DNA of 64,000 bases from a virus: positions 32,001 to 96,000 of the IMG/VR virus record IMGVR_UViG_3300047558_000238; one strand, written 5' to 3'. The notes under the pieces were generated by a model, which saw only the letters and a list, made by a program, of their open reading frames with translations, did no database searches and had not been told where the DNA came from. The first letter of the stretch is position 1. Each line of letters opens with the position of its first letter. A program made the translations under genes and the position numbers. Shown here piece by piece: positions 8,253-45,477 of the stretch.

Positions 8253-8253
8253 G

Positions 8254-8298
8254 TATTATCAGAAAAAAGTACTTGATAACAAGATTTTTCTGATAATA
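8254..8298. promoter_or_regulatory. Intergenic inverted repeat (14-bp perfect arms), possible operator or hairpin
   Basis: TATTATCAGAAAAA-N17-TTTTTCTGATAATA upstream of the helicase gene, containing TTGATA. Confidence 0.5.
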
Positions 8299-8329
8299 TA
8301 TAAATACGAAATGACGAACGGAGGCCTTT

Positions 8330-14275: not shown

Positions 14276-14767
14276 ATGCAAACATTTGTACCGCTTATTT
14301 CTTCTTTTGACGACATGGCTAAAACGCTTGACCGCGCTCGGCTCAATAAACAAGCCCTTGAGGGGTGGCAGATTCTTATGACTCTGCTGGAGCTGGACCC
14401 TCAGGGAAATCACCGAACTCCAAAAGGTTGGGTAAACCACCCAGCAGTGAAAATGTGGCGTGGCTACGAGACTGCACTATACCTCTACATTCAGGCTATG
14501 GTAGAAGAGTGGCTCGACCGAGGCTATAAGTCGACTATTGGCATAAAGGCAAAAGCAACGTTTGATGCTGCACTTAGTGCAGGGTTGGCACACTTTAGTC
14601 CGACAGAAGCCCCCGAGTGGATGACCAACAGGGAACTATTTGACTCAATTGCATCTAGTCACCGTACTGCGCTGCTAAATAAGGACTACGAGTGGTATTC
14701 TCAGTTTGGTTGGCCAGAAGATACTGGCAAGCGACCAGAAACTTACGAGTATATTTGGCCTATCTAA
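14276..14767 (+). CDS. Pyrimidine-dimer DNA glycosylase family protein (MSMEG_6728-like)
   Basis: 'MQTFVP...LDRARLNKQALE..QIL...HPAVKMWRGYE...SHRTALLNKD'. Confidence 0.8.
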   Translation: MQTFVPLISSFDDMAKTLDRARLNKQALEGWQILMTLLELDPQGNHRTPKGWVNHPAVKMWRGYETALYLYIQAMVEEWLDRGYKSTIGIKAKATFDAALSAGLAHFSPTEAPEWMTNRELFDSIASSHRTALLNKDYEWYSQFGWPEDTGKRPETYEYIWPI

Positions 14768-14815: not shown

Positions 14816-15166
14816 ATGAAGGATTCGCGCGTAGGAGAGTCGCTCTGGGATATCTGGGAAGGCTCTGGATATACCCAGGGGTTCGCAGACTCTATTGTGT
14901 ACTATACCGAGGGCCACGTAGACATCGAACATGATGTAGTACGAAAAGCCCTTGCCTCCTCTATCCAGCGAGATGGTATTACTTACTCACTATTCTCTGC
15001 TTTTGGGCTAATAGATACTGGTATCTGTTCCCAGGGGTGGGTCGGGTTAGATACTACATACGAGGTATACCAAGAGGTATGCGACGAATCTGGACAAACA
15101 TATAGCGGAACCATGCTCAATGCTGTGGTGCCAGTAACTTTCGTCGAGGTTCAAGACATTGATTGA
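14816..15166 (+). CDS. Hypothetical protein
   Basis: TAGAAT-N6-ATG leaderless start. Confidence 0.6.
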   Translation: MKDSRVGESLWDIWEGSGYTQGFADSIVYYTEGHVDIEHDVVRKALASSIQRDGITYSLFSAFGLIDTGICSQGWVGLDTTYEVYQEVCDESGQTYSGTMLNAVVPVTFVEVQDID

Positions 15167-15650
15167 TACACCTGATTGGCATGAAGATGCTGAGTGCTCT
15201 AAGCCTGCCAACAATAAGTTTATTGATAACTTTTTTGCAAATAAACCTTCCCAGCAATGGGAGGCTAAGAAACTATGCGGCGGATGCCCTGTGCGACTAG
15301 AGTGCGCTAAGTGGGCACTAGATAATAAGCAGCTTTGGGGCATCTGGGGCGGTCTAGATTACAAAGAGATTAGACGAACTCTCTCGGTTAACTGGGAGGG
15401 GCAAGAAATGCGTCACAAGCGTTTCCCGCTATGCCCAGGGTGTAAGGCAAAAACTAAGCATCTAAAAACTGCAACTATTGATAGGCCAGATGGTGGCAGA
15501 TGGTCAACTATGAGAGTAGTACGTTGCGATCTATGCCACTTCACGTGGCAGAGCAGAACAAGTGCTAATGCTGTAGACGCATACCATGTTGGTGTGACTA
15601 AGAAGCAGAGCTCAGCAAAGCCTGACGATAGTAGTAATTATTTGTTTTAA
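15159..15650 (+). CDS. whiB: WhiB family regulator fused to a C-terminal Zn ribbon
   Basis: Four Cys (C..., 'CGGCPVRLEC') plus 'GIWGG'; extra 'CPGC...CDLC'. Confidence 0.85.
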   Translation: MIDTPDWHEDAECSKPANNKFIDNFFANKPSQQWEAKKLCGGCPVRLECAKWALDNKQLWGIWGGLDYKEIRRTLSVNWEGQEMRHKRFPLCPGCKAKTKHLKTATIDRPDGGRWSTMRVVRCDLCHFTWQSRTSANAVDAYHVGVTKKQSSAKPDDSSNYLF

Positions 15651-16674
15651 GTCTCTCATCATTGGGGGCTAGCAACTCTGCCTGTTCCCCGTAAGATACT
15701 GATTCTTTGTTGAGACCAAGATTGTGCGCTGAGATTGCTGCAAGATCGTATGGTAGTGCTCCCCACGCAAACTCCTCGCATAGGTAGTCGAGAGGTTTCT
15801 CTTTGATTTCTAGTGCCTTCAGTGCAGTTCTAAAGCACTCTGCCCAGTCTTGCTGCTCATAGAGGTGCTGAGCTAGCTCGACTAGTGCTTCTCGTCTTCC
15901 GGGAGCTTGGTCTATAGCTTTTAGTAGCCAATCGTGTCGATTATTTGGCTCTATCTTAGCCAGATACCTCATCGAGGCTGCTCGCTCTGGTGCCCAGGTG
16001 GCGCTAGGTAGGTTAAGATGGCGTCTAAACTCGGCAGAAGCTTCTGCATACTTTCCGTAGAAGTAGAGCTCTCTAGCGTAGTAGAAAGCGTTCCTATCGT
16101 CATGTAGGTCTTCTTGTACTGCAATCTTTAGCAGCGGGAGGTATTGCGAGCGTGGCTTAGAGTTGTCAGCATGGTGGTGAATCTCTAGTCCATACCACCC
16201 CTGAGTCTCCGCAGTCTCTCCATATGAGACTAGGACCTCGTGGACTGGGTGCTTCCATCTATAGCCAAATCTGGTGTGTATCTTATCTCCGCCATACTGT
16301 AGCCCTGGCACTGTCTCGGCATCGTCTTTCCAGTTCCACGTGTACTGGTATCTTGGCCTACTAACACCGTCTGCATAGGCTTTATCAAGCTCAGAGCGCC
16401 ATCCTGGTATGAGGATCTCGTCCATGTCGAGCGCGATGCAGTAGTCGATATCAGCTGGTAGAGCAGCTAATGAAGCATTTCGAGCTAAGTCAAATCGCCA
16501 AGGTTTAACCGAGACATCTATAATATTTATGCCTAGTGACTTAGCAAGCTCTATAGTTCCATCTGAGCTACCTGTATCTGCAATAAGTAGGTAGTCAGCA
16601 TCTTTTGCAGATTCATACCAACTTTTTACAAACTGCTCTTCATTCAGTGCAATAGTGTAGACAGCTACTTTCAT
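15598..16674 (-). CDS. Glycosyltransferase family 2 with TPR repeats
   Basis: 'IALNEE', 'DTGSSDGT', 'FDLARN', DxD 'LDMDE', 'VHE'; helical TPR-like C-terminus. Confidence 0.88.
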   Translation of the reverse strand: MKVAVYTIALNEEQFVKSWYESAKDADYLLIADTGSSDGTIELAKSLGINIIDVSVKPWRFDLARNASLAALPADIDYCIALDMDEILIPGWRSELDKAYADGVSRPRYQYTWNWKDDAETVPGLQYGGDKIHTRFGYRWKHPVHEVLVSYGETAETQGWYGLEIHHHADNSKPRSQYLPLLKIAVQEDLHDDRNAFYYARELYFYGKYAEASAEFRRHLNLPSATWAPERAASMRYLAKIEPNNRHDWLLKAIDQAPGRREALVELAQHLYEQQDWAECFRTALKALEIKEKPLDYLCEEFAWGALPYDLAAISAHNLGLNKESVSYGEQAELLAPNDERLKTNNYYYRQALLSSAS

Positions 16675-16889
16675 TTACTAGCCTTACTCTTTCGTATCTC
16701 TAGCATGTTCCAGAGTCTCTCATGGGCATAGTAGTAGCCAAGCTCAAGTAGCGAGCCAGTAACCGCTATACCAGCTGCTGTGGCTGGGTTACCTGACCAA
16801 CCCCATGCAATAAAAAAGAAAATAAGCTCGTGAGTAACGATATAGCTTACGCTTTTTATTGCTGACTTTACTCTAGACTCTTTAGACAT
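16671..16889 (-). CDS. Small membrane protein (DUF2061-like)
   Basis: 'KSAIKSVSY...YYAHERLW'; two hydrophobic segments. Confidence 0.65.
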   Translation of the reverse strand: MSKESRVKSAIKSVSYIVTHELIFFFIAWGWSGNPATAAGIAVTGSLLELGYYYAHERLWNMLEIRKSKASK

Positions 16890-16891
16890 AA

Positions 16892-18088
16892 TTAAATCGG
16901 TAAGACGCTAATGAACTCTCGTGGGTCAAAATCTCCACCAAACACCATTGTCAAAAGTCCTGGCTTAGATTCAAGACCGGCACGATCACGGAACCATTCG
17001 GACCCTGGGTCAGTGGTAGGGCACTGAAGCCATAGGCGATCACCAATATCCATAGTGCGGAAGTTGTGGAAGTGCCCGGAGATCCAAATATCAGCGTTGC
17101 CTAGCGCGGTCTGCCCTGCAGCTTGACCAGAGATATATCTTAGGACATTATTCTGGTTAGCCTGGTGCCCGTGGAACATACCGATGTGCGTCCCGCAAAT
17201 CTCTGTAACTAGTGTCTGATGCCCTGAAGCCGGGAACCTAAACTGTACGTGCTGTAGAGCTGGGTTCTCAGCGCAGGCATCTGCCACTGCTGCTGCGATC
17301 TCGACATTCCAGCCATCTGCTGGATCCGCGGCTACCTGACGAGTTACCTCGTCGTGGTTGCCGTTGATAACAGGAACAATCATATTCTCGGCTAGAGGAG
17401 CCAAAGCTTTGATCTGAGCCATAAGAAGACGACGCGCTACACGCACCTGCTCGGTGATGCCTAAGTCAGATGCAGCAAGACCCTGTAGTCGACCATTCTG
17501 AGATACGTTACCTTCTACGTGGTCTCCAGGAAGTCCTAGGGTGATGGTTCCTAGCCCTAGGCCCATCTTTTGGTACATCTTATATCTGGCAACTGCCTTT
17601 TCGGTCAGCGTTAGGATTCTAGCGACAGACTGCTCGCTGCCTCCGCTTCCAGTCTTTTTTCCTAGCTGCTGGTCGCTAGGGAAGGCTGCAAAAGAGCCAT
17701 TTCCAGTGGACTGCTTAGTTCCACGCTCTGGACGCCACTTCTTGACCTCGTCAATTAGCTTTTCTACGTCTAGCTGATCTGCATAAGTCGGCCCAGCGGG
17801 AGTTAGGTTTACCCGCATAGACTCTAAATACTCGCCATCGTACTTCTGCCACTTACCTCGGCGAAGTGATGTCACTACCCATTCATTTGGGTCTAGGCCA
17901 AATTCTTCAACCACAGAGGTGGCGTCTGATAGTTGGCCTTCTGGCTTAGGTTGCGAAATTACAAAGCCACCTTTGATGGTGTCTATGTCCATTCTTGAGC
18001 GCCACTCTTCTGGCACTCCTAATTTCTTAAAGTCTGATCCAGAATGTCCTGGACTACGAAATTGCTCTAGCTTGTCAGAGAGACTCAA
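16892..18088 (-). CDS. Metallophosphoesterase (Mre11-like)
   Basis: 'SDQQ', 'GDHVEG', 'GNHDE', 'HGH', 'GHFH'. Confidence 0.8.
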   Translation of the reverse strand: MSLSDKLEQFRSPGHSGSDFKKLGVPEEWRSRMDIDTIKGGFVISQPKPEGQLSDATSVVEEFGLDPNEWVVTSLRRGKWQKYDGEYLESMRVNLTPAGPTYADQLDVEKLIDEVKKWRPERGTKQSTGNGSFAAFPSDQQLGKKTGSGGSEQSVARILTLTEKAVARYKMYQKMGLGLGTITLGLPGDHVEGNVSQNGRLQGLAASDLGITEQVRVARRLLMAQIKALAPLAENMIVPVINGNHDEVTRQVAADPADGWNVEIAAAVADACAENPALQHVQFRFPASGHQTLVTEICGTHIGMFHGHQANQNNVLRYISGQAAGQTALGNADIWISGHFHNFRTMDIGDRLWLQCPTTDPGSEWFRDRAGLESKPGLLTMVFGGDFDPREFISVLPI

Positions 18089-21656: not shown

Positions 21657-21923
21657 TTATAGCTCTTTTGGCGCTGTGCCCCAGTGGCCGATTGGGCAGT
21701 AGGCATTAGGTAGCTTAGTTTTTAGATTCATAAAACAGCCGCACTTCCTGCACTGCTTGCTGATCTTAAATAAAAATGGGCACTGTAAACATATCGACAT
21801 GCGCTCTTCAGCTACTTCATCAGATACTCTACCTACCTCAGAGTCTAGTAGGTCCCATGGCTTTGCGCTTTTTCTTAGCTCTTCTGGGCTCGGTAGCGGT
21901 GGGATCTCAGGTAGTTGGCTCAT
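21657..21923 (-). CDS. Small Cys-rich protein (DUF6171-like)
   Basis: 'RMSICLQCP..QCRKCGCFM..KTKL..AYCPIGHW'. Confidence 0.7.
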   Translation of the reverse strand: MSQLPEIPPLPSPEELRKSAKPWDLLDSEVGRVSDEVAEERMSICLQCPFLFKISKQCRKCGCFMNLKTKLPNAYCPIGHWGTAPKEL

Positions 21924-22260
21924 TGTCTATAAACTTTCCGTCTATATATCTAGATCCTATTTTAGCAGTAGCTGTAGTATCATCAACTAGAACAAATGTT
22001 GGCTGTGCCAAAAATATATCTGCTAGAGAGTCCTGGGCTCTTAGGATATCATAAACTTCACCATCTAGAACCATTGCAATGGTATGTACCGATGGTCCGC
22101 TTAGGTTCTTCTTCTGTTCCAGTGAGTACTGACTCTCTGTGCCGCTGCCATGGCTGTGTTGATGTTCCTTCGAAAAAGTATTTTTTAGCTTCTGCAGGAA
22201 TGATACTTGACTGGCTAATCCAGCCTGCTTTGGGGTAGGTATCTTATGTCTTGGCTTCAT
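21907..22260 (-). CDS. Hypothetical protein, paralog of 22954-23187
   Basis: TAATG-coupled start; 'IAMVLDGEVYDILRAQDSLADIFLAQPTFVLVD'. Confidence 0.6.
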   Translation of the reverse strand: MKPRHKIPTPKQAGLASQVSFLQKLKNTFSKEHQHSHGSGTESQYSLEQKKNLSGPSVHTIAMVLDGEVYDILRAQDSLADIFLAQPTFVLVDDTTATAKIGSRYIDGKFIDNEPTT

Positions 22261-22949
22261 TAGTCGTACTTTTTTCTGTGCCACATGGTGCGCTTATAGT
22301 TAAAGTCTTTTGTTCGTGCTAGATAAGCAAAGTAGCCTAAGTTTCTAAGGGCCTTGCTGCTAGCTGAGCGTATCTGCATTTTCCAGTCGTAGCGCTTGAT
22401 AGGGATCAACTGGGCTATAGGAGTTCCTTTAGGGATAACCCCTTCAAAATCTTCTTTTATGAAAAACGGAATGTTGCCAGCGTTAAAAAATACATCTGAA
22501 TCGATGATACCAGAGGTCACGTGGAAAGGTAGATCTTCTCTATTTAGTGGATGGGTCAGTAACACACTGAATCCACGGGGAGCCTTAAAATTCCAGAAAC
22601 CTGTAAATGCGAGATGGTTTGGCGCGAATCCTGGCAGTCTAGGCATTGTCTCGCCTAGTGCTGCTGGACGTTCGTTAATTATTTGACCAAGAGGGTTTTC
22701 CGGGTATGAAAAAAATATGTTTCCATCTTTTTTAGAGACTTCAATATCAAAAGGAATAGTTAACACATATCCGGTAATCATCGCATCTAAAAAAGGCATA
22801 CACTGTTTAAGTCCAGCTGATTTTTCACCTGTAGCGGTTAAAAAATGGCTTTCTGCAGACTTATACCACCCGGGTAGCGCTCTTTTAGTAGGTACTGGTC
22901 TTCCGTATTCAACTAAGTCTTTAGCGATAAAAAACTTTAGAAGTTTCAT
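22260..22949 (-). CDS. DUF6065-like protein, paralog of 33839-34570
   Basis: 'LPGWYK..KQCMPFLDAM..GY..HPLNR.DLPF..SGIIDSD..PFF..IPKGTPIAQLIP.KR..W'. Confidence 0.65.
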   Translation of the reverse strand: MKLLKFFIAKDLVEYGRPVPTKRALPGWYKSAESHFLTATGEKSAGLKQCMPFLDAMITGYVLTIPFDIEVSKKDGNIFFSYPENPLGQIINERPAALGETMPRLPGFAPNHLAFTGFWNFKAPRGFSVLLTHPLNREDLPFHVTSGIIDSDVFFNAGNIPFFIKEDFEGVIPKGTPIAQLIPIKRYDWKMQIRSASSKALRNLGYFAYLARTKDFNYKRTMWHRKKYD

Positions 22950-22953
22950 AAAC

Positions 22954-23187
22954 CTATGGCTTGCTGAAAGTTCCAGTAACTGGGTCGTAAATGTCGCCAG
23001 CCTCCACTGGGTCGTTAACATCTACCTGAATAAATGTTGGCTGGCCACTAAAGACCGAAGCAAGTTGAGCATCTGTTCGCATTCTTTGGTAGACAACATT
23101 ATTGATAATTAGTGCAAAACCATATTCGTTTGCGCTCTGCTGAGGCTGGCCTGGCGATTCTAGAGGCGGAATGCTTGGTAAAGTCAT
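22954..23187 (-). CDS. Hypothetical protein, paralog of 21907-22260
   Basis: 'FALIINNVVYQRMRTDAQLASVFSGQPTFIQVD'. Confidence 0.6.
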   Translation of the reverse strand: MTLPSIPPLESPGQPQQSANEYGFALIINNVVYQRMRTDAQLASVFSGQPTFIQVDVNDPVEAGDIYDPVTGTFSKP

Positions 23188-23188
23188 T

Positions 23189-23998
23189 TTAGTTCCTATC
23201 TATTGATATCTTATTAATTGTACTACCCTGGCCGTATGAGCTAGGGCTGATTGCTAATCCAAATCGTTTTGTTTTTGTTGGATTGTCTGCTGCATAAGTT
23301 AGGTCAGAGCCAATTTGGCTAGAAAAATTGTAGTCAGAGTAAGCTTGAATCGTAATAACATTATTTGAAGTTTTTACTCTAAATGCCGAGATTAACGTAG
23401 ATACAGCCTGAGACCACATGACGGATATCGAACCGGATACTGACTTAAGTATTCTCAGATACTGGGGGTAGCAGGTGCTACATGAAGTTCCAGAGCAGGT
23501 GCTACATGAAGTTCCAGAGCAGGTTTGACAAGTAGTTGTTGTGCCCCCGCCGGTATAGTAGATGCAATAGAAGCCAGTCCAAAATCCGCAGGTAGGTGCA
23601 GTATAGGAGTCAACACAGTTGCAACTATATGAGTAGTTGTAGCAGTTGCAACTATATGAGTAGTTGTAGCAGTTGCAACTTTCTGCTTGACTATATTTTT
23701 GTACCCCCCACCAACTATTGGATTCAGTCACCCAGAGGGAGACCATGGCCCCTTGATCTGGAGCGGCTAGTTCTACAGATACATTTTCTACGCCCATGTC
23801 TGTAGTCATCATTGGATATGTTCCAGCACCAGTAACTGTAGTCAGCTTATTGCTTACAATGCTAAATGTTCCTGCTGCTATATCCCATTTGCTGCCATCA
23901 GTAGCAACTCCAGGACTGTTTGTTATGTCAGCTCTAGTGAAAGTATCAACAAACTTTTTTCTTACAGCTTGAGCTTTGATGCCTATTGACGGTCTCAC
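23189..23998 (-). CDS. Putative fibre-tip protein with Cys/Tyr/Thr-rich repeat insert
   Basis: GTG overlaps the upstream TAG; beta-rich body interrupted by 'SCNCYNYSYSCNCYNYSYSCNC...TCQTCSGTSCSTCSGTSCSTC'. Confidence 0.6.
   Translation of the reverse strand: MRPSIGIKAQAVRKKFVDTFTRADITNSPGVATDGSKWDIAAGTFSIVSNKLTTVTGAGTYPMMTTDMGVENVSVELAAPDQGAMVSLWVTESNSWWGVQKYSQAESCNCYNYSYSCNCYNYSYSCNCVDSYTAPTCGFWTGFYCIYYTGGGTTTTCQTCSGTSCSTCSGTSCSTCYPQYLRILKSVSGSISVMWSQAVSTLISAFRVKTSNNVITIQAYSDYNFSSQIGSDLTYAADNPTKTKRFGLAISPSSYGQGSTINKISIDRN
23471..23680. repeat. Two exact in-frame tandem duplications (24 bp and 27 bp)
   Basis: GCAGGTGCTACATGAAGTTCCAGA x2 (23471-23518); CAGTTGCAACTATATGAGTAGTTGTAG x2 plus partial (23616-23680). 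Confidence 0.9.
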
Positions 23999-24714
23999 TA
24001 TGCCACCGTATCCCCAAACAATACCCACAAGTCAGTGCCGCGCTTGTAAAGCGTAGCGGATGACCACTGAGCACGCAGTTTATTTCCAGGAGTATAGTTT
24101 AGGGTTACACCAGCACCCGGTGACACGGTAACTTGACCTGCTCCAGTTTGCATAATTGATATCGTTGATCCAACTGCTATAGCAGCTGAAGAATTAGGCG
24201 GAACTGTGACAGTTATTGCAGCCGAGTTGTTTAACTCGATAAAGTAGGCAACATCGCCTGCAACTAAAGTATATGAAGTTCCAGTTTGGTTGTTTACTGG
24301 ATAAGTAAGTGAGGCTTTAGAGTTCAACTGTGTCTGTATCGGTGAGGTTACACCGCTAGCGTAGTTTAGCTCAGTGGTGGTTACAGTTGCGCCATCTAGA
24401 ATGTTAAGTTCTGCTGCTGTTGCCGTAACTCCCTCTACACCGGGGCCTGTCGGTCCAATCGGTCCTTGAATTCCGTCTGCTCCTGCTGGTCCAGTTGGTC
24501 CCATTGGGCCAGCTGCTCCATCTGCACCTGGTAGCCCATCGGCACCAGGTAGCCCGTCAGCACCCGTGGCACCAGTGGGTCCAGTTGGTCCGGTAGGGCC
24601 AACCACCATAGCTGTATTTGATGCCTTCCAGAAGGTGCCATTCCATGTCCAAGACTGGTCACCTAAAACATACGTCTGCCCTACAGTAGGGGTGTTAGGG
24701 AAATTGATTGGCAT
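23998..24714 (-). CDS. Short collagen-like fibre with C-terminal beta domain
   Basis: '[20 protein letters not shown]'; Gly-X-Y tract; C-terminus paralogous to 39172-41793. Confidence 0.8.
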
Positions 24715-24715: not shown

Positions 24716-25045
24716 TTACACTAGACCTCTCGATAAAGCATCAATCTCTAGGTCGGTTAGCCCAGCGATATCTTTTAATTTCTGTCTAGCAGTAATAGGG
24801 GCTGATATTTTCTCTAACTCTTCTGTAGTTAGATCACGTAAAGTCCATACTTGACGCCATACCCCATCAATTTCCTGTGGAAAGAGCTCCTGAAGAACTT
24901 TACCATCTATCAATGCAGGTGGATCAGTTGGTTTTACTAATGTCCACCCTGTAGGTAGACCAAACTCTGGTTCCCAGTCGGGGTTGGCAACTTTGATATC
25001 ACCAATGTGTCGTGGATACTCATTATTAGGGCTGATGTATAGCAT
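24716..25045 (-). CDS. Hypothetical protein, possible fibre assembly factor
   Basis: Coupled ORF; '[10 protein letters not shown]...LT.EE' pattern seen beside phage fibre genes. Confidence 0.5.
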
Positions 25046-26283
25046 TATCCTACTTCCGTACCTATATAGTTTACCGCTGCGCTAACCGACTGGTTGGTCA
25101 CAGAATATGACGATGCAACTGAAGAAAATCCTGGGTTTGCATAGCTAAATCCAGCGGTATTGTAATTAAATGATGGGGTAGTCACTTGTAGTGATGACGT
25201 GGCGTAGCTAAATCCTGAGTATGCTCCTAGCCCGGAGCCGTCGCCTTTTAATTTTGTAACGGCCGCTGTTCCCATTATTGCCACGGTACTATCTGGAGCA
25301 ACGTGCATTCTGAGCCAGCCCATGATAACGTTGAGCTTTCTAATGAACTGAATTGTTCCGCTACTGTTGAATTTAGCAAATCCGCCACCATAGTTTGGGT
25401 AGTCGGTATTGTTGTTGTCCTGATAAAAGCTTATATATACGTTTCCAGCACTATCTACTCCAGGAGTAGCATAGTCATTATAGCTATATACACCTGGAAT
25501 CTCTAGCTGCCTTGCCCACTGCATGGTGCCTGAGCTGTTGTACTTAACAATAAATGAGTGCCTTGTAGAGCCAGACATCCCGGAGACGTACACATTCCCG
25601 GAGGTATCTACAGTGCAGCCCATCCCCCACATTGTCTGTCCATCGGTTGGAGTTATGGTTCTTTGCCACTGAACTACGCCGTTACCTCCAGCATACGCTG
25701 TAACGTGAACTCCGGCTCCACCGCTATATGTTCCTGCTGCTACAGCAATCCCTGCGGATGCACTATAACCTATACCGTTATAGTAGCTACTTGGTGTAGT
25801 TAGGTACTGCGACCAAACCATATTTCCACTACTGTCTAGGCAAGATACGACAGGGTAGTCTGATCCACCAGTATTGTATTGTCCGCAGATGTATGTGGTT
25901 CCAATAGTGTTAGTTACGCTAGCTTGAGCAGAGCTTACAGTGGCATTTGTTGCTAGCTGCCTCTGCCACTGAATTACTCCATCAGAGTTATACTTAGCTG
26001 CAAAAAATGATCCAGAACCGGCAATATATACATTTTCTGAGCTATCTAGACTCAACCCTTGAGTATTGCTCGGGTTAATTCTTCTACCCCAGACAACTTC
26101 ACCATTTTTATTTAGCTTTATGGTTGTGCTGTATGTTTGGTAGTAGACATTTCCTAGTGCTCCAGTAGTTGCTACACCATACCCAGAGCCAGTTCCCTGG
26201 ACCACCCAGTAAAGTCCGAGTATGCGTTTTAGTCTGCCCCATGCGGCAGCTCCGCTATTCCCTAGAGTCTGTAGTAGTGGCAT
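25045..26283 (-). CDS. Beta-propeller repeat protein, putative fibre tip
   Basis: Repeated 'DSSGNVYI.G...VKYNSSG..QW.RQL' blades. Confidence 0.75.
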   Translation of the reverse strand: MPLLQTLGNSGAAAWGRLKRILGLYWVVQGTGSGYGVATTGALGNVYYQTYSTTIKLNKNGEVVWGRRINPSNTQGLSLDSSENVYIAGSGSFFAAKYNSDGVIQWQRQLATNATVSSAQASVTNTIGTTYICGQYNTGGSDYPVVSCLDSSGNMVWSQYLTTPSSYYNGIGYSASAGIAVAAGTYSGGAGVHVTAYAGGNGVVQWQRTITPTDGQTMWGMGCTVDTSGNVYVSGMSGSTRHSFIVKYNSSGTMQWARQLEIPGVYSYNDYATPGVDSAGNVYISFYQDNNNTDYPNYGGGFAKFNSSGTIQFIRKLNVIMGWLRMHVAPDSTVAIMGTAAVTKLKGDGSGLGAYSGFSYATSSLQVTTPSFNYNTAGFSYANPGFSSVASSYSVTNQSVSAAVNYIGTEVG

Positions 26284-31038: not shown

Positions 31039-31638
31039 CTAGTTGCTTAGCCTTTTAATCCAGAAAGCTGGCGACATGTATTTAACTCCTGAGACTACCG
31101 GAGTCGACCTGTGATAGTAGGGCTCTACAGATGGGAAGACCACAATACTTCCAGCTTCTGGCTTTATTTTTATATCGAACTCAGTGAAATGTAGCTCGCC
31201 GCCGTCCATATCGTCATTTAGGTAGATAACAGCTGACATTATTGGCTCTAAATGCGGCTCCCCGTGGTAGTCAACGTGAGGGCCCATCTCTGCTCCGCTA
31301 ATGTATTTAGAGATACTTATAGGCGCTGGGTCGATATAGTCTATGCCATTCTTTTTGGCATAATCTCTTCCCGCCTCGGTTAAAGCGGTTTTTAGATTTA
31401 GATATATTGACTTGACGCTATCAGAGCTGGTGCTTAGTTTAGATTCATCAGTAAATTTTTGCTGACCAAATACGTAAGGCTCTCCATCGCCAGAAGCCAA
31501 CCATTGATGCCATTTTTGTATAGCATCGTTGGTAGTCAGATTAGCATCTGTTGTCTCGATGAGCTCTATGATCTTTTCTGGGCTCTCTACAATACCCTTG
31601 TAGTAGTAAATTTTGTCAGCAAAAATCTCGGGGTTCAT
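31039..31638 (-). CDS. 2OG-Fe(II) oxygenase (prolyl-hydroxylase-like)
   Basis: HxD 'HVD', 'YLNDDMDGGEL', distal H 'YYH', 'KY'. Confidence 0.9.
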   Translation of the reverse strand: MNPEIFADKIYYYKGIVESPEKIIELIETTDANLTTNDAIQKWHQWLASGDGEPYVFGQQKFTDESKLSTSSDSVKSIYLNLKTALTEAGRDYAKKNGIDYIDPAPISISKYISGAEMGPHVDYHGEPHLEPIMSAVIYLNDDMDGGELHFTEFDIKIKPEAGSIVVFPSVEPYYHRSTPVVSGVKYMSPAFWIKRLSN

Positions 31639-32372
31639 TAGGCGAACTTGTTGCCCTTCTCCCACTCTATTTTCTGCTCGGCCTGTGCCTTACGTACCTC
31701 TTGGATTTCGGCTTCCCAAGCTGCCTTTTTCTCATCAGAGTACACGGCATCGGCAAAGTCCCAGAAGGAGACCATGGTATATCTAGTTCCCTTTAGAATC
31801 TCTTTAACTCCGTGAATGTTTTCTATTCCGCCAGGGAAGCAGATGTACGAGTAGGCAGCTGGCTTAAACTCTAGGTTGTGGTCAGGAAAATAAAGCTCTC
31901 CACCCTCGTAATCGTCATTTAAGTACAAGATACCTACATACTTATTAATCTCAAAAGCGTTTGGCGAGCCGTCGAAGTCCGAGTTATCTGAGTGTGGCGC
32001 TGCAAATCCGCCAACATCCCACTTCTGCGCATGCGAAGTATTGGCTACAACTTCACGATCAAATACCAGCTGAATAGCTTCTTTAAACTTTTCACGAAGA
32101 GTCTCGAAGAAGCGTGGAGGCAAGTCGTAGTCAGCTAGCTTCGGGTCATCAGGGTGAATGCCCATACCGGATGATCCGTAGAAGGCAATATCACCCCACG
32201 AAGAAGAATATGACTCTATGTAGTTGATGATGTTTCTTGCGGTATCTGGAGAGACAAAGTTAGCAATCTCTACGATACGGTTCTGAGGGATACCTAGCTC
32301 CCCGATGGCGTTGGGCTCATCTTTATAGACGATGAACTCTTCTGGCTGTAGGTTTTCAATAATCAATGACAT
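31638..32372 (-). CDS. 2OG-Fe(II) oxygenase
   Basis: 'HSD', 'YLNDDYEGGEL', 'HGV', 'RY'. Confidence 0.9.
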   Translation of the reverse strand: MSLIIENLQPEEFIVYKDEPNAIGELGIPQNRIVEIANFVSPDTARNIINYIESYSSSWGDIAFYGSSGMGIHPDDPKLADYDLPPRFFETLREKFKEAIQLVFDREVVANTSHAQKWDVGGFAAPHSDNSDFDGSPNAFEINKYVGILYLNDDYEGGELYFPDHNLEFKPAAYSYICFPGGIENIHGVKEILKGTRYTMVSFWDFADAVYSDEKKAAWEAEIQEVRKAQAEQKIEWEKGNKFA

Positions 32373-33142
32373 TAGTGGTCTATACCTTTCAAGTTATATC
32401 GTCCAGAATTACGTTCGACGCGCTCGCGCTCTTTTTCCATCTCGCCCCATACCGTGGGGCCGTACTTTTCCAAACCGTCACGCCACTCCTGAGTGCCCTC
32501 CGAGTAGTACTGCCAGAATGAGCGAACAAAATATTTTTGCCCTGAAGTAGTTTTATTTACTCCATGGTAGTAAGGTGCTCTGGACGGGAACACTAGCACA
32601 TCACCGGCCTGAGGCTTATGAATAAAAAAATCTACATCAGTACCTTCTTCATTCAATACTTTGAAGCAGATCTCTCCGCCTTCATAGTTATCGTTTAGGT
32701 ACATAGTGCATGTCATCACTGGCTTATCGCCAGGAGCATCAGCGCGTTCTTGCTGAAAATCAGTGTGATAGAACATGCCAACATTAGTGTCTGCTCCGCC
32801 ATCAGTTTTATACATGCAAATAGCGGGAGCGCTGAATTTCCAGTTAGGAATCTCTTCGTTGAAGTAGTTATCGTGGTAGTGACTGGTGGCCGTATAAAAA
32901 GCTCCCATAATTTCTTGTGCAGCAGGTACTAGACCCTGGCTCGCAACCATGGTCTCATGCCACTCATCAGCATCAGGAAATTTACTAAATGTATGGTTTC
33001 TAGCCTTTACGGTAGTTAGCTCTCCAAAGGTAAACCACTTAGCCCACTCCGCCGAGTCACGGTAATGCTTAGCTACTTCTTCTGGGTTTTGATATAAACC
33101 TCGGTAGACAACAACATTCGGGTAGAGTTCGATAACTTCCAC
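32372..33142 (-). CDS. 2OG-Fe(II) oxygenase
   Basis: 'HTD', 'YLNDNYEGGEI', 'YHGV', 'KY'; GTG overlaps upstream TAG. Confidence 0.9.
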   Translation of the reverse strand: MEVIELYPNVVVYRGLYQNPEEVAKHYRDSAEWAKWFTFGELTTVKARNHTFSKFPDADEWHETMVASQGLVPAAQEIMGAFYTATSHYHDNYFNEEIPNWKFSAPAICMYKTDGGADTNVGMFYHTDFQQERADAPGDKPVMTCTMYLNDNYEGGEICFKVLNEEGTDVDFFIHKPQAGDVLVFPSRAPYYHGVNKTTSGQKYFVRSFWQYYSEGTQEWRDGLEKYGPTVWGEMEKERERVERNSGRYNLKGIDH

Positions 33143-33822
33143 TAGATACCGCACTGGCTTTCGTGAGATAAGATCGTCCAGAAAAACGGAACAGTGTATC
33201 TAGTACCGGAGGTAATCTGAGTTACTCCGTGAATGTACTCCATGTCTCCAGGGAAGAAGTAAGCAGCACCTGCCTTGGGCTTAAACTGAATCCCCTGATT
33301 TGGGAAGTACAGCTCGCCACCTTCGTAATCGTCGTTCAAGTAGAACAGTCCAGCTAGGTCATAGTAGGGGAAGTCATTTGGCTTACCTCTATCTGCACCT
33401 TGGTGTAGCTCTTTATCTGCGTGAGGCATCTGAAGCTGTCCAGGCAGCCAGCGGACTAAAGCTGGTGAAGTAGGTACCGCGTCTACTTTAAAGAACGCGT
33501 CTACTTCCTTCTTAAGCCGATCAACCATACCGCTGATCACTTCTGGAATCTTTGGATCTACTGCTCGTATGGTGTCATAGGTGGCAACTCGATCTTTCCA
33601 GTAGTCAGAGTCGTAAATTACCGTGCCTTCTTCGTTATAGTGAGTCTCGGTTACATCCCAGGCAGTATTTGATCGAATAAATTTATTAAGAGTCTCTAGC
33701 TCGTACTCTGTCATAAAGTTCTCACGGGTCTGAATGTTTGACGGGCTATTGCCAAAAAATCCAGATGGTGTTATAGAGACTCTATTATTTAGTCTAGAGT
33801 TTGCGTAATCTTCTGGTTCCAT
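33142..33822 (-). CDS. 2OG-Fe(II) oxygenase
   Basis: 'HAD', 'YLNDDYEGGEL', 'HGV', 'RY'; TAAGAT-N6-ATG start. Confidence 0.9.
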   Translation of the reverse strand: MEPEDYANSRLNNRVSITPSGFFGNSPSNIQTRENFMTEYELETLNKFIRSNTAWDVTETHYNEEGTVIYDSDYWKDRVATYDTIRAVDPKIPEVISGMVDRLKKEVDAFFKVDAVPTSPALVRWLPGQLQMPHADKELHQGADRGKPNDFPYYDLAGLFYLNDDYEGGELYFPNQGIQFKPKAGAAYFFPGDMEYIHGVTQITSGTRYTVPFFWTILSHESQCGI

Positions 33823-33838
33823 ATTTTTATCTTACTGT

Positions 33839-34570
33839 CTACTCGTAAACTCGTCTGGTCCAAACTTCTTTTTGGTAGACGCCACCGTCAGGTACACGAT
33901 ATTTTTTACTATTTTCATTGTTACTCATCGCCATCTTCATGTACGAGACATCAGCATCTACTTCTGACTCCCAGTCTTCTCGCTTAAATGGAAGCATCTG
34001 GGCATACGGTGTTCCGGCTGGAATAATTCCGGTAAAGCCTTTTACTACAAAGAATGGCATGGTTCCCGGAAGGTTTACCTTGTCATTGTCGATAATTCCA
34101 CTAGTGGTTAGAAACGGTAGCTCAAAGCGATTGAATGGCTGGGTGTATAGGACGCTGTAGCCTTCAGGGACTGATACGGCCCAGTCTGACCACCATGCGA
34201 AGTGGAACTCGTGGTAGCCCATCGGTGCTTTAAACTGAGGCATTGGTGGTCGGTTCTGGATAAAGTCCTTGTTTTGAGGGTCTAGGACCTTAGCTCTAAT
34301 GGTTCCGTTTTCTTCATAAAACTCGATATCGCATGGTGTTCTATAGACGTATCCAGTACCCATGATGTCAAAAACTGCCGGACAAGCTTTCCAGGTAGGG
34401 ATCTTTCCTCCCACCATCGGGTCCTGCCAGTATTCACCATCTGGCTTTATTGCAAACCTATCAGCTTTTCTATACCACTCTGGGATAGTCTTAATAGTTG
34501 GACGCGGGACAGAGGGGCTATCCTCTGTCAGCCATGGCCTGTTCTTGATGAACTTAATCAGTTGTTTCAA
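33839..34570 (-). CDS. DUF6065-like protein
   Basis: 'IPEWY..KACPAVFD..GY..QPFNRFELPF..SGIIDND..PFF..IPAGTPYAQMLPFKR'. Confidence 0.65.
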   Translation of the reverse strand: MKQLIKFIKNRPWLTEDSPSVPRPTIKTIPEWYRKADRFAIKPDGEYWQDPMVGGKIPTWKACPAVFDIMGTGYVYRTPCDIEFYEENGTIRAKVLDPQNKDFIQNRPPMPQFKAPMGYHEFHFAWWSDWAVSVPEGYSVLYTQPFNRFELPFLTTSGIIDNDKVNLPGTMPFFVVKGFTGIIPAGTPYAQMLPFKREDWESEVDADVSYMKMAMSNNENSKKYRVPDGGVYQKEVWTRRVYE

Positions 34571-35288
34571 TTGTCATTCCTGTCACTGGGCATGTTACTG
34601 TCTTTAGTCTTATTGACTTAGTCTCGTGAGAGCCTAACGAAGTACCATCATAGTTTATGGCGTTTCTATACATCTTCGACCAGTCACCCTTAGAGTTTTT
34701 GGCTTGTGCCGCATCTCCATACTTTCTCAGCTCCTCCCAGTACTCGGGTGGTGGTGGGGTGCTGTCTACTTCTAAAGTGAAGTTGTCTTCTAGCTGACCC
34801 AATGAGATTGGCAGAACTGCTGCTACTGGAGTTCCTGCTGGAATAGTAATCTCTTTGTCTGCTTCGGTTATCTTCCAAGCAACTGGTAGCGGTGCATTAT
34901 AGAAAGACGTGCTAATTAGCGTAGTAAAGCATTGAGTACCAGCTATAAACTGATTCGGAACTGGCATAGTTAGCGTTGTAACATCAGCGTCTGTATGGAA
35001 GATTAGTCCAGTATCGAAACTAACTGTTGCACTGCCTCGATTTGGGTTCGCCCACTCTTCACCTTTGAGAATAGTGACATGGTCTCTGGTCGGATCATCG
35101 ATTCCATCCCAGATAAATGAAATATCTTCAGGGAAAGATATACCCCACCCTAGCCGATTAGTTAGCGACACTGGAAAGCACATGTAGCCATGCTTTTCTG
35201 GCAGTCGATCCATCCAGTCTCTGGTCCCTGGTAATGGTTCGATTTTTACACCGTTATCGTAGGCCTTAACTACACGTATAGTTTTCAC
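34554..35288 (-). CDS. DUF6065 family protein
   Basis: 'RDWMD..HGYMCFPVSLTN.LGW.I.FP.D..F.WDG' matches my recollection of the DUF6065 N-terminus. Confidence 0.65.
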   Translation of the reverse strand: MKTIRVVKAYDNGVKIEPLPGTRDWMDRLPEKHGYMCFPVSLTNRLGWGISFPEDISFIWDGIDDPTRDHVTILKGEEWANPNRGSATVSFDTGLIFHTDADVTTLTMPVPNQFIAGTQCFTTLISTSFYNAPLPVAWKITEADKEITIPAGTPVAAVLPISLGQLEDNFTLEVDSTPPPPEYWEELRKYGDAAQAKNSKGDWSKMYRNAINYDGTSLGSHETKSIRLKTVTCPVTGMTIETTD

Positions 35289-36037
35289 TAGCTTCCGGTT
35301 TCTACCATAAATGACGGCTTGTGGAACTTGTCTGAGTAGTCAAGCATAGTTACCATCGAGTACTTAGTACCAGACTTAACTGGCATAGCTCGGTGTGGGT
35401 ACATAAAGTTTGACGGGAAGATATATAAATCGCCTGCAGTAGCCTTGATGGTTGCATTTTGCAGTCTGAAGTGCAGCTCGCCGCCTTCATAGTCATCATT
35501 AGGGAACGCAACTAGGGACACTACGCAGTTGTAGGAGAAGCCGTGATCGTGGTGCTCCTGAAAGTGCTGTCCTGGACCGTACTTAATGAAGTTAGTTGCT
35601 TCCCAGTAGCGGAGCTCGCCAATGTTATACATCTTTGTGTAGTGGCGGACTGCCTGAAGCTGGCGATAGTGAGTCTCGTCCCAGAGGGCAGCAAGCTTTT
35701 CAGCTGCCTCCGACTTATCGCTTTGAATGTCTGTCTTCTTGTACTTAAAATCAAAGCAGTCGCGATACTCTGGCATCTTTACGCCATATCCGACCAATGC
35801 TTCTTCGTAGTGGTATCGATTAGTCGGGTCTAATAGGACCTCTTCTAGTCTGCTAATGACGTTTACTGAAGACGGTATTACATTTCTATACACCCAGATA
35901 CCAGATCCTGGCGCAACCTCTTCTGCGTGGTCCCAGGTTTTTTCTTCAATCTCGTACCACTTAGTTAGGCGTAGATTGTGGTCTTCAATCTCTCGCTCCA
36001 TTGCTTCAGTTGGCTTACTTACGTGAGAGTTTTGCAT
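35288..36037 (-). CDS. 2OG-Fe(II) oxygenase
   Basis: 'HHD', 'NDDYEGGEL', 'FPSNFMYPH', 'KY'. Confidence 0.9.
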   Translation of the reverse strand: MQNSHVSKPTEAMEREIEDHNLRLTKWYEIEEKTWDHAEEVAPGSGIWVYRNVIPSSVNVISRLEEVLLDPTNRYHYEEALVGYGVKMPEYRDCFDFKYKKTDIQSDKSEAAEKLAALWDETHYRQLQAVRHYTKMYNIGELRYWEATNFIKYGPGQHFQEHHDHGFSYNCVVSLVAFPNDDYEGGELHFRLQNATIKATAGDLYIFPSNFMYPHRAMPVKSGTKYSMVTMLDYSDKFHKPSFMVETGS

Positions 36038-36046
36038 TATTACCTC

Positions 36047-36790
36047 TTAGTACTTGAGCTTGTAGTCTTGAATTATTGGAGACACCTTGTGATTAACATC
36101 TCCGCGATCGTTGTAGTCGGTCATAATAACAACCGCATACTTAGTCCCGCTAATCATGTCCTGAGATGCGTGCTCATAGATATATGTTGACGGGAATACG
36201 ACAATATCTCCTGCCTTAGGCTTAATCGAGAGTCCGTCCATACGGGGGAACCAGATCTCACCACCTTCGTAGTCGTCATTTAAGTAGACGACCACGGAGA
36301 TGGTGCAAACATACGTCGGGCCATGGTCAGCGTGGACCTTAAAGTGGGTGCCAGCACCCTCGTACTTTACAAAATTGAATGCCTCATACGATGCAATGCC
36401 AACACCCCAATAGCGACCGTAGTCGTCTACGCATTGGCGCACTGCCTGAAACACTGCCTCGTGAACGTCGTACAGTTCGGCGTTGTCTTCGTTACGTGGC
36501 CCCAGTCCAGTGGAGTTGATCTTAAAGTCTTGAGCATTCCTTGCATTAAGGTCGACATCTGCAGATGATGTGACCTTAGCTCCATGCCATTTATATCTAC
36601 CGCTGCCGTCAAGCTTACGCTCTAACGTATCGATGTATTGCTGCCCCTGCTCTTTGGTGATTGCACCACTATAAACATTGATGCCTAGAGCTGGGTTAGT
36701 TACGGTAATAGCTGGATTAGTTGAAGCCTGGCGACCAGGCATACGGTGAGATGCGGTCTCTGACCTGTCTTTAGTAAACCAATCGTTCAT
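36047..36790 (-). CDS. 2OG-Fe(II) oxygenase
   Basis: 'HAD', 'YLNDDYEGGEI', 'YEH', 'KY'. Confidence 0.9.
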   Translation of the reverse strand: MNDWFTKDRSETASHRMPGRQASTNPAITVTNPALGINVYSGAITKEQGQQYIDTLERKLDGSGRYKWHGAKVTSSADVDLNARNAQDFKINSTGLGPRNEDNAELYDVHEAVFQAVRQCVDDYGRYWGVGIASYEAFNFVKYEGAGTHFKVHADHGPTYVCTISVVVYLNDDYEGGEIWFPRMDGLSIKPKAGDIVVFPSTYIYEHASQDMISGTKYAVVIMTDYNDRGDVNHKVSPIIQDYKLKY

Positions 36791-36808
36791 ATGGTCTACT
36801 ATACACAA

Positions 36809-45139: not shown

Positions 45140-45252
45140 AAATCAGCGATTGATTTTTGTTTTATACTAGTTATCCAACCCATCCTGACGTTGGCCAAGT
45201 GGCTAGAAAAACGTCAGGATTTTGCGTCTCTTACCTCGAAAGGTACCTTCAA

Positions 45253-45477
45253 ATGGTTACTGTGTACACCTTGCCGTCATGCGTCCAGTGCGAGAGCACT
45301 AAGAAGTATTTAGCAAGACTTGATGTACCGTTCGAGACCATTGATTTGAGCGAAGACGCTGAGGCTATGGACATGATTAAGGGCTTGGGCTATCAGGCTG
45401 CACCTGTTGTTGTAGCTGGTGATTCTCACTGGAGTGGTTTCCGTCCAGACAAGCTAAGCAGCCTAGCTGGCAACTAG
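45253..45477 (+). CDS. nrdH: Glutaredoxin-like NrdH
   Basis: 'VTVYTLPSCVQC', 'GYQAAPVV', 'WSGFRPDK'. Confidence 0.95.
   Translation: MVTVYTLPSCVQCESTKKYLARLDVPFETIDLSEDAEAMDMIKGLGYQAAPVVVAGDSHWSGFRPDKLSSLAGN

Follow-up and report, generated by a model that had tools for sequence, protein, structure and literature searches.

The 64,000-nucleotide stretch analysed here (the window; bases 32001-96000 of the 107-kb linear IMG/VR record IMGVR_UViG_3300047558_000238, whose completeness is estimated at 63%) comes from an uncultured lake phage with a likely actinobacterial host, and at positions 21657-23998 it carries a five-gene cassette that probably makes up the distal module of one tail fibre of this phage. 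In the explanation favoured here, which is considered fairly probable as a whole, a cysteine-ladder hairpin stands on a lectin-type fibre-tip protein that is served by helpers encoded downstream. A short collagen-like fibre gene would be translationally coupled to the gene of the tip protein, and one loop of the concanavalin A (ConA)-like core of that protein would have grown into a long two-stranded beta-hairpin that is braced by nested cysteine pairs, seven in this phage, running from arm to arm. The resulting disulfide ladder would most likely form once the virion reaches oxic water. The hairpin may be the variable, host-facing element of the fibre, its length changing by in-frame tandem duplication of cysteine units in both arms so that the rungs stay matched, and the loops between the cysteines diverging much faster than the scaffold. 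The genes that follow the tip gene would be helpers of the fibre module rather than a cross-linking pathway, all four of their roles being putative; among them, a zinc-ribbon-like protein of the DUF6171 family probably folds, protects or loads the cysteine-rich hairpin. The features on which this explanation is built are:

21657-21923, minus strand: DUF6171 protein of 88 residues, zinc-ribbon-like (PF19668 E 1.9e-7; phrog_13558 E 3e-15)
21907-22260 or 22284, minus strand: small protein sm125 of 117-125 residues, its start probably the ATG at 22260, which gives 117 residues; C-terminal domain paralogous to sm77
22260-22949, minus strand: dUTPase-fold protein of 229 residues from the ATG at 22949 (phrog_7084 E 1.7e-34)
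22954-23187, minus strand: small protein sm77 of 77 residues, no Pfam or PHROG match
23189-23998, minus strand: tip protein, a predicted ConA-like jelly roll with a putative cysteine-ladder hairpin insert (model, VIA-align, Foldseek)
23468-23683, minus strand: encodes the insert of 72 residues (116-187 when the 279-residue form is numbered), which is rich in Cys, Thr, Ser and Tyr
23470-23524: 24-bp tandem repeat, 2.3 copies, 100% identical, encoding CxxC units (SGTSCSTC) of the descending arm
23616-23680: 27-bp tandem repeat, 2.4 copies, 100% identical, encoding CxC units (YNYSYSCNC) of the ascending arm
23998-24714, minus strand: short collagen-like tail-fibre protein of 238 residues (Pfam Collagen E 2.8e-8; PHROG tail-fibre/minor-tail families, best E 2e-18)

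The cassette (tip, sm77, the 229-residue protein, sm125 and DUF6171) ends a minus-strand run of tail-fibre genes, being preceded in order by a 1443-residue collagen-like fibre, a 412-residue beta-propeller-repeat protein, a 109-residue protein and the 238-residue collagen-like fibre. Its genes are closely packed: the stop codon of the collagen-like fibre overlaps the start of the tip gene as TAGTG (read directly), sm77 starts 1 nt past the tip stop, the gene of the 229-residue protein starts 4 nt past the sm77 stop, sm125 begins in a TAATG overlap with the preceding stop, and the DUF6171 gene overlaps the end of sm125. As listed, the open reading frame (ORF) of the tip protein covers 23189-24028 on the minus strand and has 279 residues; the true start is probably the GTG at 23998, which yields 269 residues, because of the TAGTG overlap with the fibre stop and because homologues begin with MRPxI at this point. 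The elements listed in a first-pass annotation of this DNA, i.e. the insert protein, the repeats, the downstream genes and the paralogies among them, were all found in place.

The tip protein matches no Pfam family at E 0.1 or better and no PHROG at 0.01 or better, and none of the cultured phages in INPHARED encodes it (tblastn). A search of 185,579 species genomes returned a single match, on a contig of a Bacteroidetes metagenome-assembled genome, and gave no host assignment. Among viral sequences the family is a large one: a word-indexed search collected 71 homologues, and an exhaustive search 794 representatives at 50% identity with E 0.001 or better, 212 of them at E 1e-30 or better. In the family alignment the flanks are conserved and the insert varies widely in length and sequence, its borders being a CNC (C118, N119 and C120 are invariant and the preceding residue is mostly S) and a C-terminal CxTCYPQY. 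Some phages have two copies of the tip gene, as at 2581-3630 and 7962-9077 of locus L020 and at 2965-4104 and 9017 onward of locus L015.

An AlphaFold2 model of the tip protein, built on this family alignment, has a mean predicted local distance difference test score (pLDDT) of 89.9. Its best match in VIA-align is the receptor-binding domain of phage TM4 gp23 (9n6a, Z 16.5), followed by the carbohydrate-binding module (CBM) CBM66 (4b1m, Z 16.3), a baseplate protein of mycobacteriophage Douge (8zdo, Z 16.1) and the CBM2 of J-1 Dit (5ly8, Z 13.2); in the first three of these 149-171 residues are aligned with a root-mean-square deviation of 2.7-3.3. Foldseek places the model with PDB entries at E 4e-4 to 1e-3, and with tail proteins of BFVD (actinophage minor tail proteins) at E 2e-18 to 1e-6. 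The modelled core is a ConA-like lectin/receptor-binding jelly roll. This fold, the position of the gene and its coupling to a fibre gene together argue for a fibre-tip protein of the receptor-binding type, binding itself being suggested by fold and position.

All 14 cysteines of the protein fall in residues 118-186 of the insert, the rest of the tip protein having none, and they are ordered as three CxC, a C-x7-C tip (CGFWTGFYC) and three CxxC. In the AlphaFold2 model the insert forms two strands, residues 116-143 and 162-186, with pLDDT values of 79-96, and a tip hairpin of residues 146-159. The first-pass annotation had described an insert of about 70 residues with 14 cysteines, built by exact 27-bp and 24-bp duplications, and this description is confirmed by an insert of 72 residues in which both repeats are exact; a degenerate third copy of the 24-bp repeat extends to 23541. 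The 27-mer unit has no copy elsewhere in the window, where 0 matches are expected by chance. The aromatic tip reported in the same annotation is present (CGFWTGFYC), but it is conserved only among the closest homologues and is thus a feature of a clade rather than of the family.

The pairing of the cysteines was tested on sequences alone. Of 106 distinct family members, whose inserts contain 0 to 42 cysteines, 104 have an even number there, and 101 have no cysteine outside the insert. Among 150 representatives that are less than 50% identical to each other the number is even in 145 (range 0-46), odd counts being found in 5 of the 133 that contain cysteine (binomial p 6e-32, relatedness ignored). 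The spacing of successive cysteines follows its own mirror image, with Spearman correlations of 0.74 in the first set (640 pairs) and 0.72 in an independent set (1071 pairs), as against 0.20-0.23 (maximum 0.32) for shuffles within proteins and 0.03-0.15 for a tandem head-to-tail comparison. When close pairs with inserts of equal length are compared, identity is 98.6% in the cysteine columns and 78.4% in the rest of the insert. The types of unit are also matched between the arms: CxC faces CxxC, in either orientation, and NPYNPC faces GTGGxC. Mirrored spacing of this kind is the signature of nested pairing across a hairpin; with the even counts and the conserved framework it shows that the cysteines pair from arm to arm. 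For the protein in the window the predicted pairs are 118-186, 120-183, 127-178, 129-175, 136-170 and 138-167, together with a tip pair 147-155. The structural part of the earlier proposal of a cross-linked stalk is thereby supported, by the modelled two-stranded stalk, the parity, the mirrored spacing and the conserved cysteine framework, and it can be made more precise: an expandable ladder of nested cysteine pairs on a scaffold of the receptor-binding type, the rungs of which would most likely be disulfides.

Even parity and mirror symmetry would equally fit metal sites shared between the arms. In a hairpin bridged in this way the CxC and CxxC units would make up Cys4 sites for Zn or Fe, three of them here, or the cysteines of three chains would coordinate the metal on the axis of a trimer, and DUF6171 would act as a metallochaperone or as a partner that itself binds Zn. 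The three CxC and three CxxC of this phage do stand in matched order, and DUF6171 is itself zinc-ribbon-like. Zn(Cys)4 is the usual state of cysteine clusters from the reducing cytoplasm, and a precedent on a trimer axis is provided by the phage T4 gp37 needle, where HxH motifs bind iron. However, about half of the family has a cysteine count of 2 modulo 4 (counts of 2 versus 0 are 61 versus 41 in the first set and 69 versus 76 in the 150 representatives), and many members have one cysteine per repeat unit per arm, as in GCTGY units or in NPYNPC units facing GTGGxC units, which gives rungs of two cysteines. On both grounds the general unit appears to be a two-cysteine rung rather than a four-cysteine metal site. 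The hairpin is moreover kept by members that have no cysteine, and thiolate sites exposed on a virion would presumably not last in the oxic water of a lake. Metal bridging is on this evidence considered unlikely.

The insert changes much faster than the domain that carries it. Pairs with a median scaffold identity of 98% have an insert identity of 85%, with individual examples at 99.4% versus 85.2% and 98.3% versus 77.1%. Tandem repeats are found in 24 of 38 distinct insert DNAs; their periods are all multiples of 3 (12 to 72 bp), and they often occupy both arms. The 27-bp and 24-bp duplications in the window appear to be a recent instance of a general growth process, in which the arms would lengthen in step and so keep the rungs matched. 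Of the 150 representatives, 17 are Cys-free yet keep a long insert rich in Tyr, Thr and Ser, and the cysteines therefore appear to brace the hairpin without being required for it. In the fetched loci 11 members of the tip family are Cys-free (e.g. L088:4873-5982, L090:4149-5213 and L063:4534-5991); their inserts are extremely rich in Tyr, Thr and Ser, and they fall into two clades, most of them without DUF6171. A diversity-generating retroelement was considered as a source of the variation and rejected: the 107-kb record, which is incomplete, gives no RVT_1 match, and no further copy of the repeat unit occurs in the window. The insert shows a modest excess of codons that are a single step from Cys (32% versus 22%), which is not used as evidence.

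Across phages, the downstream genes travel with the tip gene. The tip gene follows a collagen-like fibre gene in 51 IMG/VR loci with the same gene order, and the usual order is tip, an sm77-type gene, a dUTPase-fold gene, an sm125-type gene, often a second dUTPase-fold paralogue, sometimes other genes, and DUF6171. That accessory genes accompany the insert protein, as had been claimed, thus holds in dozens of divergent phages in which they are syntenic with the tip gene. The dUTPase-fold family has at least 564 matches in IMG/VR, and in 45 dereplicated loci with enough flank the tip protein is found in 36. The sm domain is present in all 36 loci with a tip protein and in 0 of the 9 without (Fisher p 1e-9), and DUF6171 in 29 of 36 and 1 of 9, respectively (Fisher p 2e-4); these p-values are uncorrected for relatedness and, many loci being interrelated, overstate the evidence. 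In the nine loci without a tip protein the dUTPase-fold gene follows collagen-like fibres, PPFF-related proteins of the FN3 type, or unrelated Cys-poor proteins.

In this phage two further members of the set lie away from the cassette, in the PPFF cluster, which also contains oxygenase genes:

33839-34570, minus strand: second dUTPase-fold paralogue, 37% identical to the 229-residue protein (E 2.9e-34)
34554-35288, minus strand: true DUF6065 protein (PF19541 E 1.9e-27)

The paralogy of the 229-residue gene to a gene of the PPFF cluster had been recognized in the first-pass annotation and is borne out by this comparison (E 3e-34, rounded). Its description of the five genes as a second parallel cassette was too strong, as relatives hold both dUTPase-fold paralogues and the true DUF6065 in one cassette. 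In most relatives the second paralogue is inside the cassette, and here it is in the oxygenase cluster at 33839-35288; homologues of the true DUF6065 adjoin DUF6171, upstream or downstream, in the cassettes of L010, L017 and L039. The two clusters of this phage thus appear, from gene order in relatives, to be one module that has since been split.

The 229-residue protein itself had been called DUF6065-like, and genes of this kind were supposed to act on the peptides of the low-complexity proteins beside them. Its model (pLDDT 89.7) points elsewhere: the top 22 matches in VIA are all dUTPases or dCTP deaminases, with Z 8.6-5.5 and the next match at 4.5, and Foldseek also finds dUTPases, at E 6e-4. 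By sequence the relationship is remote. The Pfam dUTPase family PF00692 matches none of 24 members of the 229-residue family, and a profile of the dUTPase-fold family finds no match among PDB sequences. The phage also has a canonical dUTPase with the five motifs (57236-57808, plus strand), to which the 229-residue protein gives no significant match by hhalign or BLASTP; a permissive Smith-Waterman alignment of the two matches motifs II-IV (HPxxR, GxID, IAQL) with a score of 63, where shuffles score 34 +/- 6 and 2 of 1000 reach 63, and in this alignment motif V and the arginine of motif IV are absent from the 229-residue protein. Similarly, the protein has no match to Pfam DUF6065 (PF19541) at E 0.1 or better, 13 of the 24 family members match it weakly (best E 1e-4), and hhalign against the true DUF6065 of the window gives a probability of 51% and E 1.5e-4 over 59 N-terminal columns, so that by sequence the protein would be at most a distant relative of DUF6065. 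It appears on the model to be a diverged member of the dUTPase-like beta-clip fold and not a known peptide-modifying enzyme. The supposed action on peptides does not fit this fold, nor the occurrence of the genes beside Cys-free, collagen-like, FN3-type and unrelated fibres, and the protein appears to be a general companion of fibre-tip genes that is not specific for cysteine.

The companionship extends to viruses of archaea. A dUTPase-fold gene occurs in the haloarchaeal myoviruses HF1, HRTV-7 and Hardycor2, beside the host-range region and transcribed separately. Homologues of the HF1 group include KC292021.1 gene 38 (L134:5896-6786) and MN901520.1 HrrHc2_185 (L135:5908-6792), which are 29-36% identical to the dUTPase-fold protein, are annotated as hypothetical and border the tail-fibre/host-range region and replication genes. 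A paper on HF1-like haloviruses does not discuss this homologue.

The two small proteins were correctly noted at the outset to be paralogous: a C-terminal domain is common to sm77 and sm125, with a BLASTP match of E 8e-8 across 35 residues. None of 26 members of the sm family matches Caudo_TAP (PF02413) or Phage_tail_APC (PF16778) at E 10 or better, and the PHROG matches of the family are to families of unknown function only. A structure search of the Atlas with sm125 gives a weak template-modelling (TM) score of about 0.40 to Phage_tail_APC/Caudo_TAP clusters, the model having a pLDDT of 0.55. Because they co-occur strictly with the tip protein and are placed as a helper is behind its fibre gene, sm77 and sm125 are probably fibre-assembly helpers, or partners, specific to the tip family. 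All Cys-free tip members keep an sm gene and a dUTPase-fold gene, and these genes are therefore not dedicated to cysteine chemistry.

DUF6171 is in this respect distinct. The window's protein scores 31.8 bits against PF19668 (cut-off 27; 30.6 bits in a genome search). Its family is viral, the members are about 80 residues long and have the motif CxxC-x10-CxxC(G)C-x14-CP-x-G-K/H-W, and an Atlas search returned DUF6171 clusters only and no structure. Among 71 distinct tip proteins, for which a tree was made from scaffold columns only, a DUF6171 gene lies no more than 5.5 kb downstream of 60 of 60 Cys-rich tips versus 3 of 11 Cys-free ones (Fisher p 2e-8), and in the tree two changes suffice for each of the two traits, cysteine and DUF6171. 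Five second copies of Cys-rich tip genes have DUF6171 alone downstream. As judged from these gene neighbourhoods, it is a good lead that DUF6171 may be the only component of the cassette that tracks the cysteines. The earlier view that the stalk is matured by the downstream genes is retained to this extent, DUF6171 tracking Cys-rich tips; the remainder is not, there being no known class of cross-linking enzyme and the other genes not being dedicated to cysteine. An apparent fusion of tip and DUF6171 in L119 (7192-8151) reflects a 182-nt deletion relative to the near-identical L121 (7192-8334) and was rejected as Rosetta-stone evidence; this in-frame fusion of a truncated tip with DUF6171 probably stems from a defective variant or from a difference in assembly. 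A word-based search of longer proteins, itself a weak one, found no fused forms of DUF6171 or of the dUTPase-fold protein.

DUF6171 also keeps company with glycosyltransferases, and the hairpin, rich as it is in Ser, Thr, Asn and Tyr, might be glycosylated, with DUF6171 as an adaptor of the glycosyltransferase and the dUTPase-fold proteins handling a pyrimidine nucleotide or nucleotide sugar. Of 72 distinct DUF6171 genes, 14 directly follow a gene resembling PF11397, a glycosyltransferase of the N-acetylglucosamine (GlcNAc) type, and 6 are fused to it. The cassettes of relatives hold not only this PF11397 enzyme but also a GT1, a Polysacc_synt_2 sugar dehydratase and methyltransferases. The dUTPase fold binds pyrimidine nucleotides, and motifs II-IV of the 229-residue protein align with those of the phage's own dUTPase. 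In several relatives homologues of a GT2 gene with a TPR-like tail, found in the window at 15598-16674, directly follow the cassette or a dUTPase-fold gene. Set against this, no PF11397 gene was found in the record of this phage; this glycosyltransferase occurs in 5 of the 11 loci with Cys-free tips, DUF6171 being absent from most of these, and so is independent of DUF6171; and the 229-residue protein is without motif V and the motif IV arginine. Glycosylation as the explanation of the cassette is accordingly rated as quite unlikely.

The GT2 gene with the TPR-like tail (15598-16674, minus strand; Pfam E 1e-6) has as neighbours a DUF2061 membrane protein (16671-16889) and a metallophosphoesterase-like protein (16892-18088). 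Its homologues stand directly after a DUF6171 or dUTPase-fold gene in L020, L113 and L127, which suggests that the gene is part of this fibre module and, in consequence, that glycans may be attached to proteins of the virion. PF11397 genes are found in the cassettes of relatives at L010:10995-11984, L032:11942-12964 and L021:10811-12250, and are fused to DUF6171 in L021, L030 and L073. PF11397 is the family of the Skp1 hydroxyproline GlcNAc-transferase. Its occurrence in relatives, together with that of prolyl-hydroxylase-like oxygenases at 31039-36808 of the window, suggests hydroxyproline glycosylation of fibre proteins.

Enzymatic cross-linking of the hairpin by the downstream genes, the reading of the first-pass annotation, would take the form of thioether, Cys-Tyr or similar links in the manner of ribosomally synthesized and post-translationally modified peptides. 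Tight and conserved linkage of the genes, with overlapping stops and starts, speaks for it, as do the Cys- and Tyr-rich composition of the insert and the tracking of Cys-rich members by DUF6171, and families of unknown function could hide new chemistry. However, no radical-SAM, YcaO, lanthipeptide, cupin, P450 or oxygenase domain is found by Pfam or PHROG in 21657-23998, the sole enzyme-like protein has a dUTPase fold and accompanies Cys-free and unrelated fibre tips just as well, and even cysteine parity is predicted by Cys-Cys pairing and not by Cys-Tyr or Cys-Ser links. Cross-linking enzymes are on these grounds thought highly improbable. That the downstream proteins are instead structural parts of the fibre tip, i.e. 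adaptors or caps with the dUTPase fold serving as a trimeric block as in herpesvirus tegument proteins, agrees with the translational coupling of the genes within a structural operon, with VIA matches to herpesvirus pp71 (Z 6.0) and ORF10 (Z 5.8), and with the one to three dUTPase-fold copies per cassette, which are compatible with a structural or an enzymatic role, but in haloarchaeal myoviruses transcription of the homologue is separate from that of the tail genes and runs in the opposite direction, and this possibility is given hardly any credence.

The explanation preferred here, of a distal fibre module with a disulfide-laddered tip and downstream helpers, draws on a fold, repeats, cysteine parity and mirrored spacing, hypervariability and gene linkage that the analysis shows, and on disulfide chemistry, receptor binding and helper roles that are putative. 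Several points weigh against it. No cultured phage has the tip gene, and receptor binding is read from fold and position only. Parity and mirror symmetry, as noted, fit metal-bridged pairs as well as disulfides. The insert is of low complexity and its alignment has 30 sequences, and the high pLDDT may therefore overstate the certainty of the model. Assembly of the phage takes place in a reducing cytoplasm, and the idea that it encodes an oxidase of its own (Erv1, DsbA or thioredoxin) was dropped, since none of these genes is found in the 107-kb record, with its estimated completeness of 63%. The link between DUF6171 and cysteine reflects about two independent losses of cysteine, with which a test of independent pairs cannot reach significance; three Cys-free tip members keep DUF6171; and DUF6171 is also found beside or fused to a glycosyltransferase, and once without a tip protein (L113). 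The grounds for a helper role of sm77 and sm125 are where the genes lie, their co-occurrence with the tip protein and a single structural hint, which is weak (TM 0.40, pLDDT 0.55).

The only thiol-redox gene found in the record is a glutaredoxin (45157-45477, plus strand; Pfam E 1e-14). It lies just upstream of a 705-residue ORF (45879-47996) for which the label ribonucleotide reductase is a guess only.

A bolder form of the preferred explanation may be put forward tentatively, as rather unlikely to hold in full: in phages of freshwater actinobacteria the tip would be a natural stalk binder, a ladder hairpin of 0 to about 23 rungs on a lectin scaffold, and would need DUF6171 as a dedicated viral factor for oxidative folding or loading. 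A second class of proteins, also new, that tailor or assemble fibres in bacterial and archaeal viruses would be represented by the dUTPase-fold paralogues. The poxvirus E10R-A2.5L-G4L pathway has a comparable logic, that of a minimal viral cytoplasmic disulfide pathway.

Other genes of the window bear on the host and on the remaining fibres:

14276-14767, plus strand: pyrimidine-dimer DNA glycosylase
15159-15650, plus strand: WhiB-family regulator (Pfam E 2e-17)
25045-26283, minus strand: beta-propeller-repeat protein of 412 residues (SBBP E 1e-6), directly after the 1443-residue collagen-like fibre

An actinobacterial host is likely because of the WhiB-type regulator and of a neighbouring primase-helicase that resembles those of Microbacterium phages and is the sole DNA-level similarity match. 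With the 412-residue SBBP protein the phage seems to have fibre-tip proteins of three kinds.

The design has partial counterparts in known systems. It shares the jelly-roll fold with the receptor-binding domain (RBD) and CBM modules of actinophages (TM4 gp23, 9n6a; Douge, 8zdo/8zdp; J-1 Dit, 5ly8; DUF7257 minor tail proteins), and shares with actinophage tail RBD modules its distal position in the fibre module, the host here being probably an actinobacterium as well (WhiB). Unlike these, the tip protein has one loop expanded to a hairpin with a cysteine framework, a feature that is absent from the actinophage structures and whose length ranges from 70 to over 300 residues, and the protein has no detectable sequence similarity to any curated family.

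Cystine-ladder beta-hairpins are familiar on a smaller scale from protegrins and tachyplesins. Theta-defensins display the cystine-ladder motif in solved structures of small peptides (PMC10096437). The likeness consists in antiparallel strands with nested cross-strand cysteines and a conserved framework between which the residues vary. However, theta-defensins, protegrins and tachyplesins are free, secretory peptides of 16-18 residues with 2-3 rungs, whereas the tip hairpin belongs as a loop to a virion protein of 27 kDa, has 7 rungs here and about 23 at most in relatives, and grows by tandem duplication, and its disulfides are predicted.

The closest functional analogy known to us may be the ultralong third complementarity-determining region of the heavy chain (CDR H3) of cow antibodies, where a "stalk and knob" carries a hypervariable Cys-rich insert on a beta-ribbon stalk (PMC5994613, PMC8602281). 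Both project from a beta-sandwich binding domain, in both the number and position of cysteines and the length vary by insertion and deletion, and aromatic residues alternate in both stalks (YxYxY in cows, YNYSYS here). They differ in the source of variation, which is hypermutation by activation-induced cytidine deaminase in B cells versus germ-line slippage and recombination in phage populations, in their unrelated scaffolds, and in that the cysteines are concentrated in the knob of the cow insert and run along the whole stalk of the tip hairpin.

Arrangements of a fibre gene followed by an assembly helper are exemplified by lambda stf-tfa, Mu S-U and T4 gp37 with gp38 and gp57A. Like these helpers, sm77 and sm125 are encoded by small coupled genes directly behind a receptor-binding gene with which they co-occur strictly (36 of 36 versus 0 of 9), but unlike them they match neither Caudo_TAP nor Phage_tail_APC by sequence, and the dUTPase-fold and zinc-ribbon-like proteins of the cassette have no counterpart in the lambda, Mu and T4 systems. 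The 229-residue protein resembles the dUTPase/dCTP deaminase superfamily, including its non-enzymatic members pp71 and ORF10, in its fold and its counterparts of motifs II-IV; it differs from dUTPases in having an extra N-terminal region and a helical C-terminus, and in being encoded in fibre rather than nucleotide-metabolism modules.

Disulfides in a cytoplasmically assembled phage tail have been described for the freshwater cyanophage Pam3, whose tail fibre and baseplate contain disulfides by cryo-electron microscopy, mass spectrometry and treatment with dithiothreitol (DTT) (PMC9942802). Pam3 is similarly a freshwater phage assembled in the cytoplasm and uses DTT-sensitive tail disulfides, but these are few, are placed between subunits and tie the fibres to the wedge, and there is no ladder, hypervariable insert or DUF6171. 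Literature searches on cysteine-rich or cystine-ladder phage fibres returned only Pam3 and unrelated work, and searches on DUF6065 and DUF6171 found no papers. No published description of a cysteine-ladder fibre tip was found, and the design appears to be new relative to the literature searched.

Receptor-binding proteins decide the host range of phages, and those of uncultured freshwater phages are almost unknown. The large unannotated family described here (794 representatives) points to a design rule for such proteins, in which a lectin scaffold bears an expandable hairpin of cysteine rungs with hypervariable loops. If the proposed structure is correct, it would be the longest natural cystine ladder known to us, a microbial counterpart of the "stalk-and-knob" antibodies of cows and possibly a sturdy frame on which binders could be engineered. 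How a part of the virion that is rich in disulfides comes to be made in a reducing cytoplasm is a further question that it raises. The cassette provides a first concrete biological context both for DUF6171, which goes with Cys-rich tips, and for the DUF6065-like group, which would be a companion of fibre tips in bacterial and archaeal viruses.

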